Source of the DNA: a virus
Taxonomy: Duplodnaviria; Heunggongvirae; Uroviricota; Caudoviricetes
Strand: one strand, 5' to 3'
DNA length: 44,878 nt
Virus record (IMG/VR): IMGVR_UViG_2563366802_000013
Coordinates: 1-44,878 of that record
The position numbers and the translations under genes were made by a program. The notes beneath the pieces are model-generated. The model did not search any database and had not been told where the DNA came from. It saw nothing but the letters and a program-made list of their open reading frames with translations. Shown piece by piece: positions 19,799 to 29,546 of this stretch. Positions within the stretch are counted from its first letter, which is position 1. The number at the start of each line of letters is the position of its first letter.

Positions 19799-20725
19799 CT
19801 ATTTCTCCGCCCAGGCGTAACCGCGCGCCTGCATCGATTTATATTCCTGTTTGAGTTTCGTGATGGTGTCCGGGTATTCCGGCTTGCCGTCCGCATCCAC
19901 CAGCACAGACTGCTGGCTGCATTTGCAGTTGATGGAGTTGCCATCTTTGCTGTACCAGTCACGCACCTCTTCATTGGTGTAGAGGTGGGCATGGCGCACT
20001 GCGTGGGTATGTCGCGTTGTCGGCGACAGAGCTGAGATGTGAACCAGCAGCGTTTTAAGGCCGAACAGGTCATTCGCCTCCTGGTCTTCATCCCATTTGG
20101 CCCGGCGCAGCGCGGTAGTCACTTCAGTGCGTGCTATCCGGTTCGCCCGGCGTTTCTCGATGCCGGTCTGGTCTGTCAGGTTGCGGGCAATGTCCAGCGG
20201 ATTGAGTCCTCGGCCCACGCCATCAGTCAGCACGCGTGCCATATCTCGCTTAACGTCAGCAGTAAGACCCTTCATTTCCTCAAACACACGGGCATGCACC
20301 AGCGCCATGCGTTGCTGGTACGGGTCGCTTGCGAGGATGGACGCCAGCGACTCACGTCCTGCTGCATACACGGGGGATTGCTGGCTTAGGTTGTAGAACG
20401 ACTGCCCGGTCCCTTTCTCCGATGCCAGATCGATGTACTCGTAAAACCACAGGTCGTAATCGCCACCTTCAAGCAGCACCTGATCAACCAGGTAACTGGC
20501 ATCGTTCAGGATGATGGAGAGTAGCGTTGGGTTTAGCTGGTATTCGTATCTGGCGTTTACTGCGAGGGAGGAAGGTATTTTGTCGAGTGCTGATTTGTAC
20601 GCTTTGCCAATCTTATTCATTCGCCTGGCGAAGTCTTTCATTGCCCGGCGTTCCAGCGCATCGGCTCCGGTCGGATCCTGGTAGTTACGCGGCAGAATCG
20701 GTGGCTTCGTCTTTTTCGTCGCCAT
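19799..20725 (-). CDS. Phage head morphogenesis protein (SPP1 gp7 / Mu F-like)
   Basis: 308 aa directly downstream of portal; composition and position typical of the minor head protein family. Confidence 0.75.
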   Translation of the reverse strand: MATKKTKPPILPRNYQDPTGADALERRAMKDFARRMNKIGKAYKSALDKIPSSLAVNARYEYQLNPTLLSIILNDASYLVDQVLLEGGDYDLWFYEYIDLASEKGTGQSFYNLSQQSPVYAAGRESLASILASDPYQQRMALVHARVFEEMKGLTADVKRDMARVLTDGVGRGLNPLDIARNLTDQTGIEKRRANRIARTEVTTALRRAKWDEDQEANDLFGLKTLLVHISALSPTTRHTHAVRHAHLYTNEEVRDWYSKDGNSINCKCSQQSVLVDADGKPEYPDTITKLKQEYKSMQARGYAWAEK

Positions 20726-22031
20726 CTTCTCCTAACGGCTCCTCGTCATCATTGTCATAGCCCGCAGCAGTGCGAATCTCTTTACGACTGAATGCTGGCT
20801 CTTCGCCACTGCCCTGCATGGTCTGGTTAATCTCGCCCATGGTCTTGGCGTTAGTGAGCTTCTCAGTACCGGTCTGTTCGTTCAGGTCATCCCAGATAAC
20901 AGCCTTCTGGCTTACTGAGTCGACTATCTGCAGGTCGATAAGCTTGTCGCAGAAGTCCTCTATCTCGAAAGCGAGGTCTACTCGGCGCGACTGACAGCGA
21001 GCATTAAAGTATTTCTGGTCTTCAGTGCTGGACCGCTCAGCCTGCTGGTTACCAACCAGAATGCGGGTCGGGATATCAACTCCGGCGGCAGCGGTTTGCA
21101 GGTTGACGTTATAGGTCGCTGACGGATCAGCTACAGCAGTAACCAGCGGTGTCACCGTGGCCCCTTGGGTTGTCATCAAAACATCGTTGCCACGGTTCAT
21201 TTCCCCGGCAACTTCGTTAAACTTATCCTGCAACTCGTCAATGCTCACGCCATAAAGTGACGCAAGATTGTTGAAGTCGATTTCCTTCTCAAAGTTGACA
21301 TTAAGCTGGCGCGCGGCGTTCTTCAGGAATGACTCGCCGGATCCACCCTCTACCTTCTCCAGGCTTACAAAGGCGTTATAAGCTGGCTCAAGGAAGCCAA
21401 TAGCATCGTCTGAGTAATCACCAAGGATGAAAACGCGATCGGGGTGGATATTGACGCGGCGACTTGAACCATTCGGCAAGCGTTCGGCGTACTGCCACAT
21501 TTTCGGCTGACCGTAAGTCTTCGAGTTCAGCCCAGTGTCCCACTCGCTCACCGTTAGCGATCCGGCCCATGCCACGGAAACCTTCTGCAACCCTCGCCCT
21601 TTGGTAACCGGAAGGTTCCAGTCTTTTTCATCGCGGACGTGCAGAAGGATGCCTGCATAACGACCGACAAGGCGACGACGATCCGCCTCGGCAAATGAGC
21701 GCCAGAACCGGTTGTTGAATACCTGCTTTGACTTGTTTTCCCAGGCGGTTTCGTTTTCACTCTCGTCGGCATCGTCACCCTCAATGATTTCCGGGTTCGT
21801 CTGCCAGCACTTGCCCACCAGCTTCTCAACGGCACCGTGAGCGATACCACCGCGCCGGTACAGGGCATAGAGATTTTCGTAGGTTACCTGCTCAGGGAAG
21901 CCATACTCACACCATGCGGAATGGCGCTTATTGTCCAGCCCCATCGTCGGTGCCATCAGCCCCATACGGGCGCGCGCCATCCGCGCATCGTTCAACGCAT
22001 GGTTGACGGCGAGAGTTAATTGGTCAGTCAT
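20685..22031 (-). CDS. Portal protein
   Basis: 448 aa immediately downstream of terminase large subunit; acidic C-terminal tail. Confidence 0.75.
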   Translation of the reverse strand: MTDQLTLAVNHALNDARMARARMGLMAPTMGLDNKRHSAWCEYGFPEQVTYENLYALYRRGGIAHGAVEKLVGKCWQTNPEIIEGDDADESENETAWENKSKQVFNNRFWRSFAEADRRRLVGRYAGILLHVRDEKDWNLPVTKGRGLQKVSVAWAGSLTVSEWDTGLNSKTYGQPKMWQYAERLPNGSSRRVNIHPDRVFILGDYSDDAIGFLEPAYNAFVSLEKVEGGSGESFLKNAARQLNVNFEKEIDFNNLASLYGVSIDELQDKFNEVAGEMNRGNDVLMTTQGATVTPLVTAVADPSATYNVNLQTAAAGVDIPTRILVGNQQAERSSTEDQKYFNARCQSRRVDLAFEIEDFCDKLIDLQIVDSVSQKAVIWDDLNEQTGTEKLTNAKTMGEINQTMQGSGEEPAFSRKEIRTAAGYDNDDEEPLGEDGDEKDEATDSAA

Positions 22032-22046
22032 GGTTTATCCGTTTGG

Positions 22047-23525
22047 TTAGCGAAGGCGTTTCGGAATCATCATCCCCACAGGTTGCGATCCATTCAGTTC
22101 AGTCAGTGCGTAAACCATTGCATCGAGGCGGTCAGGTGATTTCTTAGCGGTGGCGGGGATGTATTCCATCAGCTGGTTCTCCAACACGTAGAGATTGCCG
22201 TGATTTGCCACTCTCCCCTGTTCGTAGAGCGCCGATATCGGCTCCGCGCGGGCATACTTACCTTTGCTGGCATGGACACGAATGATGCGACCTTTGAACC
22301 CGGCGTTGCGGAGTGTCTCCTCCGCCATATCTCCGCCCTGGTTCGTCTCAATAACTATCGCGTCAGCTTCGTGTTGCTCATAAGCCGATATGGCTTTCTT
22401 GGCCCATCCAGCTGGTGAATATTTTCCGCTGTAATCGCCATCCACAGAGAACTGCTTTTTGTCACCGGCACCATATGAGCTGGCAGCGACAATGCCTGTT
22501 TCATCGCTTTCGTCGCTATTTGTTGCCTGTGGGTCAATCGCCACGACAGTGCGAACCTTATCGTGATGAATTTGCAGCTCGCGTGCCGCGCTGATCATAA
22601 CTTCTGTCCACAGGGCTCCTTCAGCATTAAATCTGCGAGGCTTCTGCATATACTGCGCTTCGGCAGTGCGCCTGTGAGAGAACAGAGATAAGCGATGCGA
22701 CTCGTTGTGCTTGAAAGGCCACAGCCAGCCATCAGGCAGGCCATGGTCAATCGGTATTGCGTGGGAGTTCTCAGGGTACTGCGCAGCGTATGGTTGGCTA
22801 TTGTCGATAATCACCGGCAGGTTCAGGTGATGCCATTTCTCACCACTCCCGCCCCGCAGAAGATAGCCGCTCAGGTCGTGGTAGTGGATCCGCTGCATGA
22901 TGACAATCATCGGCGTCGTCTCGATCGCCAGTCGTGATTTAATTGTCTCGTTAAAGCGATTGTTGACGCCGTCGCGGACGATCTCCGAATAAGCGTCGTC
23001 CGGCTTAACCGGGTCATCGATAATCAGCGCGCCCTGCCAGCCCGGTTCCATGTGTCCGGCACGAAAGCCGGTAACCTGTCCCGCAGCTGACGAAGCATAA
23101 ACGCCGCCGCCGTGCTCGGTCCACCACATCGCCTTACTGTCAGCGTCATCGCGTAGCGACATCGGCCACATCGACTGATAGGCCTGCGACTTAATCATGC
23201 CGCGTGCGGTGGAGGAGTTCAGCAGCGCCAGATTGTGCGAATAGGACAGGTGCATGAATCGGGCCCGGCAGTTCAGCGCCAGCCCGCGCCCCATCATGTT
23301 GATGGTCGCCAGCTCCGTTTTTGTGTACCCAGGCGGGACGTTGATGATTAGGCGCTGAATCTCACCATCAATGACGCGGTCCAGCGTCTGCTGAATAACC
23401 TTGTGGTGGGGAGCGACAATCATCTTTCCGCCGGTGCGCTGCTTAAAGAAGTATCGCGCGTAGTAGAGCCCGTCCTCTTCGCATTCAACCTTACGGGCAA
23501 ATGCCCTTTGCTCAGCAGTCGTCAT
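22047..23525 (-). CDS. Terminase large subunit
   Basis: 492 aa; N-terminal ATPase region and C-terminal nuclease region with acidic residues; start overlaps TerS stop. Confidence 0.9.
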   Translation of the reverse strand: MTTAEQRAFARKVECEEDGLYYARYFFKQRTGGKMIVAPHHKVIQQTLDRVIDGEIQRLIINVPPGYTKTELATINMMGRGLALNCRARFMHLSYSHNLALLNSSTARGMIKSQAYQSMWPMSLRDDADSKAMWWTEHGGGVYASSAAGQVTGFRAGHMEPGWQGALIIDDPVKPDDAYSEIVRDGVNNRFNETIKSRLAIETTPMIVIMQRIHYHDLSGYLLRGGSGEKWHHLNLPVIIDNSQPYAAQYPENSHAIPIDHGLPDGWLWPFKHNESHRLSLFSHRRTAEAQYMQKPRRFNAEGALWTEVMISAARELQIHHDKVRTVVAIDPQATNSDESDETGIVAASSYGAGDKKQFSVDGDYSGKYSPAGWAKKAISAYEQHEADAIVIETNQGGDMAEETLRNAGFKGRIIRVHASKGKYARAEPISALYEQGRVANHGNLYVLENQLMEYIPATAKKSPDRLDAMVYALTELNGSQPVGMMIPKRLR

Positions 23526-23991
23526 CCTCCATCATCTCCTGCCGTGCGGATTTGTATTCCTCTTTGCTCATGGTGATCGTCTGGATGGCGCCACCATTAG
23601 GGCCGGAATGTTCAAATTTGTGCTTATTGGTGTAGGCATCTCCGCATTCCTTCGCCGCCTGCTCAATTATCTCGGCAGTAAGTGCGAGGTTCTTCATGCC
23701 CTCGGCACGCGTTGCCATTCGGTCGAGAACGCGCAACCGGTACGCTTTGTTCGCGATCGGTATGTCGGCGATCTCATTCTGGAATCGTTTACGGGTGGCG
23801 TTGAACAGGTCAATCCACTTCTGGCTCAACTTGGCCGCCATTGCATTGCCTGGCGTATATTGCGACACCTGCTGCCGTGAGACATCGATGCCGTATTCAG
23901 CCTTTACAAGCTCAATGACTTTTACCGGGGTCTCGTAGCAGGCGAGTGATTGAACGATGAAGGCTTTAACCTCTGTCGATAATGCTGCCAC
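23512..23991 (-). CDS. Terminase small subunit (HTH-containing)
   Basis: Probable GTG start at about 23991 preceded by GGAGGTG SD (track ORF extends to a TTG at 24009); N-terminal HTH-like segment; overlaps TerL start. Confidence 0.65.
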   Translation of the reverse strand: MAALSTEVKAFIVQSLACYETPVKVIELVKAEYGIDVSRQQVSQYTPGNAMAAKLSQKWIDLFNATRKRFQNEIADIPIANKAYRLRVLDRMATRAEGMKNLALTAEIIEQAAKECGDAYTNKHKFEHSGPNGGAIQTITMSKEEYKSARQEMMEDDDC

Positions 23992-24022
23992 AGGCCACCT
24001 CCATGACAATCTGAATAAAGCG

Positions 24023-24661
24023 TTACGCCAGCTTCAACATGCACGTCCCGCATGACCTGGCTATATCGATGTGAGCCACTTCTGCTGGCGCATTGGCCGC
24101 ATCAACGAGCTCCTGTACTTCTTTGCTGGCACCGTATCGCCGTACGACACCAGTGAATTCTTCGACGTCGTGGCCGCGCAGTGTAAGCACTGGCTTCCCG
24201 GTCTCTTTGTTGAACTTCGGCGCGCCGAAATCATCTGTGGCCTGGGCGATGTGGTAAAGCTCATGCTCTACCAGTGCGCAGAATTCAAGGTCGCTACACT
24301 GTGAACAGTAATCGGCCGCCAGCGTGATGATGAACTTCGGTATGCGTCCGAACCATTCATGCATCTGCTGTTCCATTCTGGCTTTCTGCCAACCGCCGGC
24401 GCGAAGCATTACCTGTTCGGCCTGACCGAGAACATAGCGCCCCTTCTTCGCGAAAGAGTCAGACGCCCACATGAAGCAGAGGTCAGCTTCAAGAAGGTGT
24501 TCATGGTCTGGGTTATGGATGCTGCCGGTATCGCTGAGGATTTGGCGGTTTATCCACTCACGCACTTCGTTGGCGGGAATGAGCCGGGTGTATGGCTGCC
24601 AGTTCTCGGAGGCGATGAAGTTAACTGGCGGATAAGGCCTGCGCTCGTCATCGTTAGCCAT
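24023..24661 (-). CDS. HExxH motif protein (putative zinc metallopeptidase-like), function unknown
   Basis: 212 aa; HELYH motif in ...CALVEHELYHIAQ...; ATG start; between Rha and TerS. Confidence 0.6.
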   Translation of the reverse strand: MANDDERRPYPPVNFIASENWQPYTRLIPANEVREWINRQILSDTGSIHNPDHEHLLEADLCFMWASDSFAKKGRYVLGQAEQVMLRAGGWQKARMEQQMHEWFGRIPKFIITLAADYCSQCSDLEFCALVEHELYHIAQATDDFGAPKFNKETGKPVLTLRGHDVEEFTGVVRRYGASKEVQELVDAANAPAEVAHIDIARSCGTCMLKLA

Positions 24662-24664
24662 GGG

Positions 24665-24871
24665 TTACTCCGTTGTTTGTTCGGTCTGCTCTGCTGGTAC
24701 TGGCGTGAACTCCACGCGCTTCACGTCGGCAGGGGCAAAGTAAAGCCACTGTCCAGTTTCGGTAGCCAGCGGCACAAAGCCGTTTACCAGTTCAGGCTGA
24801 CGTCGTGACATCTTGCCCGTGAAGGTTTCGCCTGTTTGCGTGGTTAGGGTGATTTGGTAGATGTAGGACAT
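24665..24871 (-). CDS. Hypothetical 68-aa protein
   Basis: ATG with AAAGAGGT SD; stop 1 nt before the HExxH gene start. Confidence 0.45.
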   Translation of the reverse strand: MSYIYQITLTTQTGETFTGKMSRRQPELVNGFVPLATETGQWLYFAPADVKRVEFTPVPAEQTEQTTE

Positions 24872-25026
24872 GATTACCTCTTTGCCTTGTCGCAGCTGTT
24901 GCCCTGCTTCTCAGAAGTGCTTAGCCACTTACGGCTTACCCGTCAGCAAGATATGATCACCATCCTTGCGGGGTTACACAGATCATTATCGAAGCCCCTC
25001 AGTGAAGAGCTTCTGTAATGTCGCGA

Positions 25027-25551
25027 TCAGCCAATCAACAATTCTGGCTGCGTCACCTGCATGATGTGCTCATGCTCAACGGCCAGAACGCGCTTTTCCT
25101 TCTTGCGTTCGTTCATCAATCTGCTGCCGATCGTGCCTTTCAGCTTCGAACGCGTTTCTTTGATGGCGTAGCGGTGCTGCATTTCTTCGCCCATCGCCAG
25201 ACGTCTGCTAAGTTGTTCGGCCATCCAGTTAAATGCGGCGATGTATTGCTCTTTAATAGCGGTAGCTACTTTCCCGGTAAATCCCATTACCAGCATCATC
25301 CACCCGTCTTTTGTGATGTTGTACATCAGACGCATTTCGCCTTTTTTATCGAGATATTCAACGGGCTCAAAATTGAGCCGGTTAAAATCAGGCGAGCAAT
25401 CAACCTCCAGCCGCTTGATAGCACGCAGAACGTTTTTATGCGCCTTGCCGAAATAGCTGGCGATCTTCATAGAAGTGGTGATGACCTTCCCGTTACATGG
25501 CATGACCATTTCGCGGAAGTCGAAGGCTGGAATAACTGACGGATTATTCAT
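25027..25551 (-). CDS. rha: Phage regulatory protein Rha
   Basis: N-terminal domain ...GKVITTSMKIASYFGKAHKNVLRAIKRLEVD matches the Rha/ORF6 N-terminal family; probable ATG at about 25551. Confidence 0.7.
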   Translation of the reverse strand: MNNPSVIPAFDFREMVMPCNGKVITTSMKIASYFGKAHKNVLRAIKRLEVDCSPDFNRLNFEPVEYLDKKGEMRLMYNITKDGWMMLVMGFTGKVATAIKEQYIAAFNWMAEQLSRRLAMGEEMQHRYAIKETRSKLKGTIGSRLMNERKKEKRVLAVEHEHIMQVTQPELLIG

Positions 25552-25742: not shown

Positions 25743-26216
25743 TCATTTAAGACACTGCTCTTTGATGTAGTCCTGCATGCCGCGAATCATTTTGTCAGCG
25801 GTTGCGATTCCGTCCCGGTGATCGAAATAATTCCGTCGAGCGTCTGGAGTAAGTTCGGGGGATCCTGCATCATCCACGCCGGAGGCGGAGGTGGCTTTGG
25901 ACACTCCAGGGCAGGTTGCAGCGATGCGCAGCCGTTTAGCGCCAGAATCGACATCCCGACGCAAATCGTTAATGGTTTTTTTCGCATCGGACAATTCCTT
26001 CGTGTATTTGGCATCCAGTGCAGCGACATCACGCTGACGTGTCTGCATGTCTTTGATGGTAGCGTGAGCCAGGCTGAGTTTCTCAGTGGCTTTATCGCGC
26101 TGGTCTTTATAGGTGATGGCGTTGTCGCGGTAGTGGTTAACGAAGAACGCCAGCACGCCGATTACCGACACCACAATCAGTTGCAGCCAGTAACGCTTAA
26201 CCAGCGCGCCAATCAT
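25743..26216 (-). CDS. Rz: i-spanin Rz
   Basis: 157 aa; N-terminal TM segment then coiled-coil periplasmic domain; overlaps endolysin stop; contains embedded Rz1 frame. Confidence 0.8.
   Translation of the reverse strand: MIGALVKRYWLQLIVVSVIGVLAFFVNHYRDNAITYKDQRDKATEKLSLAHATIKDMQTRQRDVAALDAKYTKELSDAKKTINDLRRDVDSGAKRLRIAATCPGVSKATSASGVDDAGSPELTPDARRNYFDHRDGIATADKMIRGMQDYIKEQCLK
25787..25987 (-). CDS. Rz1: o-spanin Rz1 (embedded in Rz, +1 frame)
   Basis: Lipobox LALNGC followed by Pro-rich segment (PKPPPPPAW); start taken at internal Met about 25987. Confidence 0.7.
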   Translation of the reverse strand: MRKKPLTICVGMSILALNGCASLQPALECPKPPPPPAWMMQDPPNLLQTLDGIISITGTESQPLTK

Positions 26217-26653
26217 GATAGGAACAGAGTCCGCTCTGCCTCCCGCCGACGAGTCAGCCCGTTAAGGACCTTACCACCCGCTTTATTCCAGCGCAGGAAC
26301 TCATCGGCAGCGCCAGCGTAATCTCCGGCGTTGAGTTTTCGCAGAAGAGTCGATGTCGACAGTGACCGGGCTCCGAGGTTGTACGTGAACGACACCAGGG
26401 CGTCGAATTGCCCCTGAGTCAGACCAACTTTAACCAGGCGAGACACGTCGCTTTCGTAGCTGACAAGTCCGGTCTTCAGCAGGCGTTCTGCCGTTTCCTG
26501 CTTAATCGTCATCCCGGCGCGGATTGGTTTGCCATCGACAGGCTGAGTCCAGCCATATCCGATCGTCCATACACCGACACTGTCCCGGTAGGCGGTGAGT
26601 CTACAGCCTTCGAATTCTTTGATTAGGGCAATGCCCTTTTCGCTGGTTTGCAT
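26213..26653 (-). CDS. Endolysin (phage lysozyme, glycoside hydrolase 24-like)
   Basis: 146 aa; N-terminus GIALIKEFEGCRLTAYRD...WTIGYGWT is the classic T4-type lysozyme catalytic block. Confidence 0.9.
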   Translation of the reverse strand: MQTSEKGIALIKEFEGCRLTAYRDSVGVWTIGYGWTQPVDGKPIRAGMTIKQETAERLLKTGLVSYESDVSRLVKVGLTQGQFDALVSFTYNLGARSLSTSTLLRKLNAGDYAGAADEFLRWNKAGGKVLNGLTRRREAERTLFLS

Positions 26654-26656
26654 GGA

Positions 26657-26932
26657 CTACTCCGTTATAACGACCTTCGCCAGGTTCCCGCGAGCCAGCC
26701 ACACCGCCATGCAGATGACGGAGTTAAGCAGCAGGTCGCCGAGGTTAACCTGTACGTAGTGGCCGAGCAGAATGTTGAAGGCATTGAATCCGGCGGCAAG
26801 GATGACCAGATAGGCCAGCACCGCGACACTAAGGCGATGACGCTTTCCCTCTTTCCGGAAAAACATCAGCCTGACCATGATTAACAGGCAAACTATGGCG
26901 TTTGCATCCATCAGAAGAAGCTGCCATGTCAT
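26657..26932 (-). CDS. Holin-like membrane protein (second holin or antiholin)
   Basis: 91 aa with two hydrophobic segments; immediately upstream of the endolysin. Confidence 0.6.
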   Translation of the reverse strand: MTWQLLLMDANAIVCLLIMVRLMFFRKEGKRHRLSVAVLAYLVILAAGFNAFNILLGHYVQVNLGDLLLNSVICMAVWLARGNLAKVVITE

Positions 26933-27330
26933 TTATCTTCCTCCCCCAGCCCTGGCATCTTCCCGCTTTTGGATTTGCGGAGAATACGCAGCAGGACTGC
27001 CACGGAAATGGAAGCAGTGACAATTGCACCTACAGCTGGCGATACCTCAATGCTGGCCGGTGGCTTCATCAGGCTTAACGGCGTGTTGATGATTCCGGCC
27101 ATGATTTTCGCCATGGGAACGGAGAAGAACACGCCACTGATAAACGATATCAGCGCAAAGATAGCCTGCTTCCAGAGTTGATGGGGATCTGAGGTCAGAA
27201 CGTATAGCGCCGTTCCGGCGAGTGATCCGAGCATCACTGCTGGAGTCGCCTCCGGAAACAGCGTGGCAAAGGTTACACCGACTGATGACGATGCAAGACC
27301 AACGCCTACGATAGTGAAGGTCTCAGACAT
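26929..27330 (-). CDS. Holin
   Basis: About 133 aa from internal ATG near 27330 (MSETFTIVGVGLA...); three hydrophobic segments and a charged C-terminus; first gene of the lysis cassette. Confidence 0.6.
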   Translation of the reverse strand: MSETFTIVGVGLASSSVGVTFATLFPEATPAVMLGSLAGTALYVLTSDPHQLWKQAIFALISFISGVFFSVPMAKIMAGIINTPLSLMKPPASIEVSPAVGAIVTASISVAVLLRILRKSKSGKMPGLGEEDK

Positions 27331-27602: not shown

Positions 27603-28103
27603 TCATTGAAAAGCAAGCGCGTTATGAGGATTTTTTGCAATTTTCCTCATATTTTCGCGATTGTTAAACGCATTTTGCAGCGGTTGGTACAAACAGAACA
27701 GTGAGGCATTGATGATTTGCTTCACCTCTCTACGGATTGTCGAGATGCTTGGGTGTTTATACTGATTTCCGCCACGCGTCTTCATCAGGCGAGGCTTACT
27801 TACTGCATGCTGCCATGATGCAATTCGGATCTCGCTGGAGTTACAAACGTAGTAGGCGAAGACAACCCGCCAGGCATTTTCATCCACATTCTTCAGATAG
27901 TGACGAATTACAGCATCAATGAGCATCCCGTCATCATCACTACATACCGGTCGTGATGCTTGCTGGGGCTCGACGGTAGCCATGAATCTGGCAATCATGT
28001 TGATCATCGCTTTATCAATCTTGCCGGTCTGGCACCATGCGCCCCACAACTGGAGCCACTGGTCTACCCATTGATGCTGGTCTTTGGTTAATTCCAGTTT
28101 CAT
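27603..28103 (-). CDS. Q: Late-gene antitermination protein Q (phage 21/82-type family)
   Basis: 166 aa; motifs WLQLWGAWC and RPVCSDDDGMLID...FAYYV match the Q antiterminator family as I recall it; positioned immediately upstream of the lysis genes. Confidence 0.8.
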   Translation of the reverse strand: MKLELTKDQHQWVDQWLQLWGAWCQTGKIDKAMINMIARFMATVEPQQASRPVCSDDDGMLIDAVIRHYLKNVDENAWRVVFAYYVCNSSEIRIASWQHAVSKPRLMKTRGGNQYKHPSISTIRREVKQIINASLFCLYQPLQNAFNNRENMRKIAKNPHNALAFQ

Positions 28104-28862: not shown

Positions 28863-29025
28863 GCGTTCTCCGTGCCGCGAGACGCAGCCATTTCTGATCC
28901 ACCAGGCGGGCGGTGTACCCCTTCAGGGTCGGGATGTCGGACGGATTAACCGCAGGCTTACGCTGGCGGCGCGCCGGAACGCGGAATATTTCGTTTGTGA
29001 TTACGCGGGAAAGTGGAGTAGACAT
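28855..29025 (-). CDS. Hypothetical 56-aa basic protein
   Basis: Below the track's 60-aa cutoff; ATG with AGGAGG SD; TGATG overlap with the HNH stop; stop overlaps the DUF1364 start. Confidence 0.35.
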   Translation of the reverse strand: MSTPLSRVITNEIFRVPARRQRKPAVNPSDIPTLKGYTARLVDQKWLRLAARRTHG

Positions 29026-29546
29026 CAGGCCTCCTGCTTATCGCGCAGCTGCTGGTAGCAATGACTATTGGGCAGTCCGTGATTGACATGGTAACCATGC
29101 TCAGCCTTTGCCTTGTCGCGAGCTTGCTTTGCTTCTTCCATGCTCTCGTAAACACCCACGAACTTTCTTTTTCCGTCGGCGTTGATCTGGACATGCCACT
29201 TGCTTAGTTTTTTATTCCAATGGATACCAATCTCACCTGATGTATTGGTGCTGGGTAGCGATTTGTTACGGGTATTATCCGACTGGCTTATCAGCCTAAG
29301 GTTTTCAATCCGATTGTCTGCTCGGACGTGATTTATGTGGTCAACCTCCATTCCTTCCGGAATTGGGCCGTTTATCATTTCCCATACAATTCTATGCGCC
29401 AGGTATTGACAGCCAGAGTATTCAAACCTTCTGTAGCCATCGCTAAGACATCCTGCAACGTCACCAATTTTTACCCTGTTAGCTGGCTTTATGGCCCACA
29501 CAAGATTTCCATCAACAATGGAAAATATATCGCTCCAGTTATGCAT
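29025..29546 (-). CDS. HNH homing endonuclease with AP2-like domain (second copy)
   Basis: 173 aa; HNH core MEVDHINHVRADNRIENLRLIS; paralogous to ORF 8641-9108 (shared YLAHRI...E.NGPIP block). Confidence 0.8.
   Translation of the reverse strand: MHNWSDIFSIVDGNLVWAIKPANRVKIGDVAGCLSDGYRRFEYSGCQYLAHRIVWEMINGPIPEGMEVDHINHVRADNRIENLRLISQSDNTRNKSLPSTNTSGEIGIHWNKKLSKWHVQINADGKRKFVGVYESMEEAKQARDKAKAEHGYHVNHGLPNSHCYQQLRDKQEA

Follow-up and report, generated by a model that had tools for sequence, protein, structure and literature searches.

The window is the whole 44,878-nucleotide stretch of viral DNA that was analysed. The chromosome of E. coli strain L73 contains a lambdoid prophage that matches the window region with 100% identity. 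The genes that define the locus all lie on the minus strand and are listed here in the order of their transcription:

27603-28103, minus strand: Q antiterminator
25743-27330, minus strand: two holins, lysozyme and Rz
25027-25551, minus strand: rha-family regulator, the upstream neighbour (Phage_pRha, E 1e-28; RefSeq coordinates)
24872-25026, minus strand: gap of 155 nt between rha and p68
24665-24871, minus strand: p68, a 68-aa ORF (phrog_6581)
24023-24661, minus strand: mp212, a 212-aa PF18894 "putative phage metallopeptidase" with a minimal zincin-like domain
23992-24022, minus strand: spacer of 31 nt between mp212 and the presumptive small terminase, with a GGAGGTG ribosome-binding site (read from the sequence)
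23512-23991, minus strand: DUF2280 ORF with a GTG start, presumptive small terminase (PF10045, E 2e-42)
22047-23525, minus strand: large terminase (Terminase_6C; phrog_38, E 2e-95)
20685-22031, minus strand: portal (Phage_portal_3 and phrog_146 over the whole length)

The original prediction had placed a 212-aa ORF with an HELYH motif and a 68-aa ORF between rha and the terminase genes, and its coordinates, lengths and motif were all found to be correct. The intergenic region to rha, which it had given as 150 bp, measures 155 nt. The strong ribosome-binding site noted for the 68-aa ORF is the Shine-Dalgarno sequence AGAGGT, located 5 nt ahead of the ATG. The TAA stop codon of p68 is separated from the ATG of mp212 by only 3 nt, and mp212 has its own GGAG 6 nt 5' of its start. 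This tight spacing may allow coupled translation of the two genes in this prophage. Further downstream, the DUF2280 ORF and the large terminase ORF overlap by 14 nt. The mechanical list of ORFs starts the DUF2280 ORF at a TTG at position 24009; the GTG at 23991 situated behind the GGAGGTG is likelier and is also the choice made in RefSeq. Consensus scans from rha to the terminase genes found neither a promoter-like nor a minus-strand terminator-like site, in agreement with read-through late transcription. The RefSeq name of the portal gene, "anti-CBASS protein Acb1 family protein", probably misleads, because the portal profiles Phage_portal_3 and phrog_146 match the protein over its full length.

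To judge by its profile matches, mp212 is a typical member of PF18894, a family that is catalogued but uncharacterised. The Pfam profile PhageMetallopep (PF18894) matches it with an E-value of 9.6e-44 and 149.2 bits (cut-off 23.7) over profile positions 2-134 of 134, and phrog_513 does so with an E-value of 2e-101. The members of PF18894 and PHROG 513 have the size, the conserved HExxH and the phage or prophage setting found in mp212, and the match is full-length. The relatives form 2956 clusters at 90% identity and 806 clusters at 50%. The earlier statement that neither protein could be placed in a known family was thus wrong for mp212, for which RefSeq has the name "putative metallopeptidase"; a confident assignment to a known family was also the outcome that the original prediction had taken as speaking against it. 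Searches of Pfam returned no Peptidase_M78 match and no SprT-like match at E-values up to 0.1, while NCBIfam gave nothing meaningful and PADLOC only a chance-level match (E 0.006) to an unrelated model. Among the 240 best relatives in the database, none is a fusion of the metallopeptidase with DUF2280 or another domain; all are single-domain proteins.

Nucleotide diversity among close relatives of the mp212 gene is 0.027, 0.016 and 0.185 at the three codon positions, showing that the protein is under purifying selection. On the evidence of sequence comparison, both mp212 and p68 are real genes rather than chance ORFs.

Roughly one in four family representatives is longer than mp212, with 250-330 residues. 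Most of these longer members are extended at the N-terminus by about 50 residues; the extension is helix-turn-helix-like and has the conserved pattern Y-S/T-x-E-x-K-x-x-A-L ... G-D-x-x-x-A-A-K-x-x-x-V-P-x-x-x-L-x-x-W. Its matches to known profiles are weak and sub-threshold (HTH_Tnp_1, 3e-5; HTH_8, 9e-5; MerR, 2e-4). The extension suggests an action of the enzyme on DNA or close to it, and might also explain why PHROG 513 bears the label "transposase", since the helix-turn-helix of the long members is transposase-like. The label looks like a propagated misannotation.

The conservation of individual residues was scored among 127 diverse relatives, whose identities range from 33% to 88%. Positions H53, H55, W65, W91, G105 and T113 are conserved in relatives down to 33% identity, as are H133-E134-x-x-H137, H164-D165-x-E167, R175, G177 and C204-G-x-C207. 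The conservation of H133, E134, H137 and H164 is 98-100%. The motifs that could form metal sites are the following:

24497-24505, minus strand: H53-x-H55, additional conserved histidines (96-98% conserved)
24251-24265, minus strand: HELYH, H133-E134-L-Y-H137, the presumed catalytic zinc site, on helix 124-136 of the model (H133 and E134 invariant, H137 99% conserved)
24161-24172, minus strand: H164-D165-V-E167 of RGHDVEEF, candidate third zinc ligand (H164 invariant, D165 and E167 at least 90% conserved)
24041-24052, minus strand: C204-G-T-C207, the C-terminal CGxC (C204 98%, G205 96%, C207 90% conserved)

H53 and H55, together with C204 and C207, possibly form a second metal site.

The AlphaFold model of mp212, built from 100 diverse relatives, has a pLDDT of 93.5 and a pTM of 0.87; the pLDDT drops to 73 and then to 52 in the last 12 residues. 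The model contains a minimal zincin core, in which the active-site helix bearing the HExxH packs against a mixed beta-sheet. The original prediction had proposed a check for a zincin fold and a third zinc ligand. The fold is present in this confident model, and for the ligand H164, with D165 and E167, provides good candidates, identified by sequence only. The model is nearest to the minigluzincins and to Spartan/Wss1. The similarity is remote, and a Foldseek comparison with the PDB gave nothing significant. PDB sequence searches with mp212 and with the family profile gave chance matches only, and in a viral structure library the only proteins found were other members of PF18894.

The arrangement of the motifs resembles that of SprT and Spartan, and the core structure is similar, although mp212 does not belong to their sequence profile (PF10263). 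Spartan has HEMIH-x14-GHGPEF, which was confirmed in PDB entry 6mdx, and mp212 has the comparable HELYH followed by RGHDVEEF. However, the 14 residues that separate the HExxH from the third histidine in Spartan are replaced in mp212 by a 25-residue beta-hairpin insert, and mp212 has no recognisable zinc ribbon, unlike SprT, Spartan and Wss1. The minigluzincins projannalysin, proabylysin and selecase are 10-13% identical to mp212. They are about 100 residues shorter, the additional part of mp212 comprising, among others, an N-terminal region in which RPxPP and HxH motifs occur, and the archaeal minigluzincins have no phage or DNA context.

The HNH accessory proteins (gp74) of HK97-like packaging machines are small metal-dependent enzymes whose genes lie beside the terminase genes. 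The HNH genes and the mp212 gene are both conserved directly next to terminase genes, so that a functional analogy is possible, although the fold and the motif of the proteins are unrelated. The linkage of mp212 follows the family of the small terminase and not that of the large terminase or the portal, unlike that of the HK97-like HNH proteins. By this analogy mp212 could be a metal-dependent nuclease, or another non-peptidase hydrolase, which helps the terminase to cut pac or cos DNA as HNH proteins do. This is distinctly unlikely. The best structural matches of the model are peptidases, and the invariant glutamate of the HExxH is a hallmark of peptidases that is absent from YbeY. Furthermore, the large terminase has a nuclease domain of its own (Terminase_6C).

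The 68-aa protein p68 matches phrog_6581 with an E-value of 1.8e-37 and has no Pfam, NCBIfam or PADLOC match. Its only match in the PDB is a short low-complexity stretch in designed beta-trefoils. The AlphaFold model (pLDDT 78) shows a five-stranded beta domain, residues 4-57, and a disordered acidic tail. The relatives of p68 form 301 clusters, and all those among the matches listed are from Enterobacteriaceae. In 74 of 80 close loci p68 is found upstream of near-identical metallopeptidase genes, at distances of 4 to about 950 nt. Over the 80 species-level genome loci a homologue is detectable by BLAST in 17, and only 9 of 76 have it as their closest upstream ORF. Homologues are absent from Pseudomonas, from other genera and from all nine remote loci described below. 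The region 5' of the metallopeptidase gene is hypervariable, as 48 of the 76 upstream ORFs (loci L084-L163) are singletons. Together with the rarity of p68 as nearest neighbour, this identifies the upstream slot as a position for hypervariable cargo. On these counts p68 is one of many occupants of a variable slot and not an obligate partner. Other occupants include a 123-aa protein with an HECAH motif of its own (L096, 4626-4997) and a protein that is proteasome-beta/HslV-like, as judged from the annotation of a phage record (L158, 4403-5029). The upstream-slot proteins of the other loci, these two included, have no Pfam matches.

The original prediction had treated the 68-aa ORF as a coupled partner, perhaps in a toxin/regulator pair, and had alternatively considered virion maturation, in which mp212 would be a prohead protease. 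That either of these should be right is now extremely improbable. The 3-nt gap and the good ribosome-binding site do suggest coupled translation in this prophage, but the pair is largely refuted by the confinement of the p68 family to a part of the Enterobacteriaceae and by its variable distance from the metallopeptidase gene. No recognisable prohead protease was found in this head module, which would leave room for a maturation protease. However, mp212 matches no known prohead protease family in Pfam or PHROG, and its gene is situated upstream of the terminase genes, outside the portal-to-capsid block. In the phage of a relative the metallopeptidase coexists with a Peptidase_S78 prohead protease, and it pairs with several different head modules.

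The conserved partner of the metallopeptidase is, by gene order, the downstream DUF2280 gene and not p68. The DUF2280 protein matches PF10045 with 143.8 bits (cut-off 24). It is presumptively the small terminase because of its position, the 14-nt overlap with the large terminase ORF and its helix-turn-helix-like N-terminal sequence. DUF2280 is found directly 3' of the metallopeptidase gene in all of 80 viral contigs that were selected for their similarity to mp212. The same is true for all 79 species-representative genome loci that have downstream sequence; these span Enterobacterales, Pseudomonas and the Betaproteobacteria Methylotenera and Pusillimonas. The genome loci were found with the narrower alignment A2, the diverse alignment A1 being too variable for a locus scan. 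When viral contigs were instead selected for their similarity to the small terminase, the metallopeptidase gene was directly 5' of DUF2280 in 80 of 80. Pooled over loci chosen by either gene, the metallopeptidase is directly upstream of DUF2280 in 239 of 239 close-to-moderate relatives. The spacing between the two genes is similarly short in 159 of 168 pairs.

The arrangement extends to nine remote relatives, 33-50% identical, from metagenomes and genomes. All nine metallopeptidase genes lie upstream of a large terminase gene. DUF2280 is adjacent in six, is separated by one gene in another and lies about 4 kb downstream in a further one; in the ninth the small-terminase position is occupied by a different protein of 91 residues. 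DUF2280 is thus found within about 4 kb downstream in eight of the nine, whatever the large-terminase family. The large terminases of these loci belong to at least three families (Terminase_6, Terminase_3 and GpA-type), and some are unassigned. The adjacency of metallopeptidase and DUF2280 is near-obligate in phages of Proteobacteria and independent of the type of large terminase.

Among GenBank phages, 144 records have the metallopeptidase and 328 have DUF2280. Broken down by host genus, the two genes occur in almost equal numbers (Acinetobacter 62/62, Pseudomonas 44/47, Vibrio 8/8, Burkholderia 7/7). The excess of DUF2280 is accounted for by 181 Salinibacter phages, in which no PF18894 gene is detectable. 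DUF2280 terminases can thus work without the metallopeptidase. The Salinibacter gene upstream of DUF2280 was considered as a diverged metallopeptidase and rejected, as it codes for an unrelated 172-aa protein (seen in the region 3432-4480 of L167, Salinibacter phage 5_7). Phage phi80 was also examined: the gene that immediately precedes cos there is not a relative of mp212. In a Brevundimonas prophage (L256, 4692-4967) a gene for a 91-aa protein, which has no relation to DUF2280, stands between the metallopeptidase gene and the large terminase gene. As read from the gene order, this protein is a natural swap in the small-terminase slot. Culturable phages that have the pair include Pseudomonas JBD44, Salmonella vB_SosS_Oslo and several Acinetobacter phages.

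The alleles of the two genes do not travel together. Metallopeptidases that are at least 95% identical adjoin small terminases that are only 53-100% identical, with a median of 71%, which points to a recombination joint between the two genes. The pairing, as far as these alignments go, is one of families and not of alleles. The lack of co-inheritance argues against a tightly co-evolved protein interface.

The linkage might be caused in cis, by a pac or cos site in or beside the metallopeptidase gene, with no functional tie between the proteins. Third-codon diversity among close relatives falls to 0.10 at codons 160-200 (24062-24181, minus strand), compared with 0.2-0.3 in the middle of the gene. 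This dip could be due to a cis-acting site such as pac, or to a mere recombination tract. Several deposited phage genomes end just past the metallopeptidase gene and begin at the small terminase gene, but the ends of records may be no more than annotators' conventions. A cis-acting cause would leave the conservation of the catalytic residues and the strong purifying selection on the protein unexplained. In addition, small-terminase alleles have been swapped beside near-identical metallopeptidase genes, the opposite of what would be expected if the site were matched to the DNA-binding domain of the small terminase. This explanation is very unlikely.

The reading that is preferred, tentatively and at close to an even chance, is that mp212 acts as a metalloprotease associated with DNA and cooperates with the small terminase at the onset of packaging. 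The protein would be a soluble zinc hydrolase of about 200 residues with a minimal zincin core, whose third histidine would be that of a GH-D-x-E-F motif, as in SprT and Spartan. Its gene would be transcribed late and, with DUF2280, would make up a conserved unit of two genes with which the packaging operon begins. Either the small terminase or a different packaging component may then be processed by the enzyme, or the enzyme may strip proteins from the DNA that is about to be packaged. We infer the link to DNA, the protease activity and the role in packaging. Against this reading speak the Salinibacter phages that have DUF2280 only, the separate inheritance of the alleles, and the two remote phages in which DUF2280 is 4 kb away or its place is taken by another protein. 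p68 would be an unrelated occupant of the upstream slot and would not be needed for the unit.

Much as with mp212 and DUF2280, ImmA/IrrE (COG2856) and ImmR are an HExxH protease and a helix-turn-helix protein encoded side by side on a mobile element. By analogy, mp212 might cleave its DNA-binding neighbour. However, the neighbour of mp212 is a presumptive terminase subunit and not a repressor, the expected expression is late instead of early, and mp212 has no Peptidase_M78 match.

Zincin effectors are common in conflict systems, and mp212 may instead be an anti-defence effector, as the original prediction had also considered, or a host-takeover effector, a late protease that cleaves a host or satellite protein and is encoded merely at the border of the packaging operon. 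Its target would be, for example, an immune sensor recognising the terminase or the portal, or a protein with which a satellite hijacks the small terminase. The gene adjoins the hypervariable cargo slot with its many singletons, its alleles recombine freely relative to those of the small terminase, and it is missing in the Salinibacter DUF2280 phages. All this would suit an effector. Typical counter-defence genes, however, are patchy in distribution, unlike a gene that is present in all 239 loci, in both directions of sampling and in many genera. PADLOC gave no defence-related match, and the helix-turn-helix extension points to DNA and not to a cytosolic target in the host. An effector of this kind is thus unlikely.

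A more far-reaching version of the packaging role is that the PF18894 zincins are an unrecognised class of accessory factors for DUF2280-type small terminases in phages of Proteobacteria, and that a DNA-targeted protease is a prerequisite for packaging. The small terminase would then have to be processed, or the packaging start site cleared of proteins, before packaging could begin. This proposal must be regarded as rather doubtful. Were it true, its importance would be comparable to that of the HNH proteins of HK97-like phages.

The mp212 gene itself is ordinary, being a member of a known family that is named in RefSeq; the new lead is its pairing with DUF2280. The pairing of the zinc hydrolase with DUF2280 is near-universal in temperate phages of Enterobacterales, Pseudomonas, Acinetobacter, Vibrio, Burkholderia and Rhizobiales. 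In the searchable open-access literature the PF18894 family is only mentioned in passing, as an accessory gene, and no description of the pairing was found in the searchable literature. Should packaging require the enzyme, it would represent a new type of component of phage packaging machines and would give a role to both families. The "transposase" labels in circulation for the PF18894 family would then also be corrected.

Relatives of the metallopeptidase on Sinorhizobium megaplasmids (H163, H172-H181) are often split into two to four aligned pieces. The fragmentation suggests that they are decaying prophage remnants.

Several nuclease genes were observed in the same prophage and in other phages. 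Two HNH endonuclease genes are located in the prophage, one in the tail module, at about 8373-8840 of the window (L001, 4351-4818), and one in the nin region, at about 29025-29546 (L001, 25003-25524). A gene for a TnpB/InsQ RNA-guided endonuclease lies within the prophage near its dsdC-side end, at about 42797-43957 (L001, 38775-39935). In some Acinetobacter phages a gene for an HNH or Vsr-type endonuclease adjoins the metallopeptidase gene.
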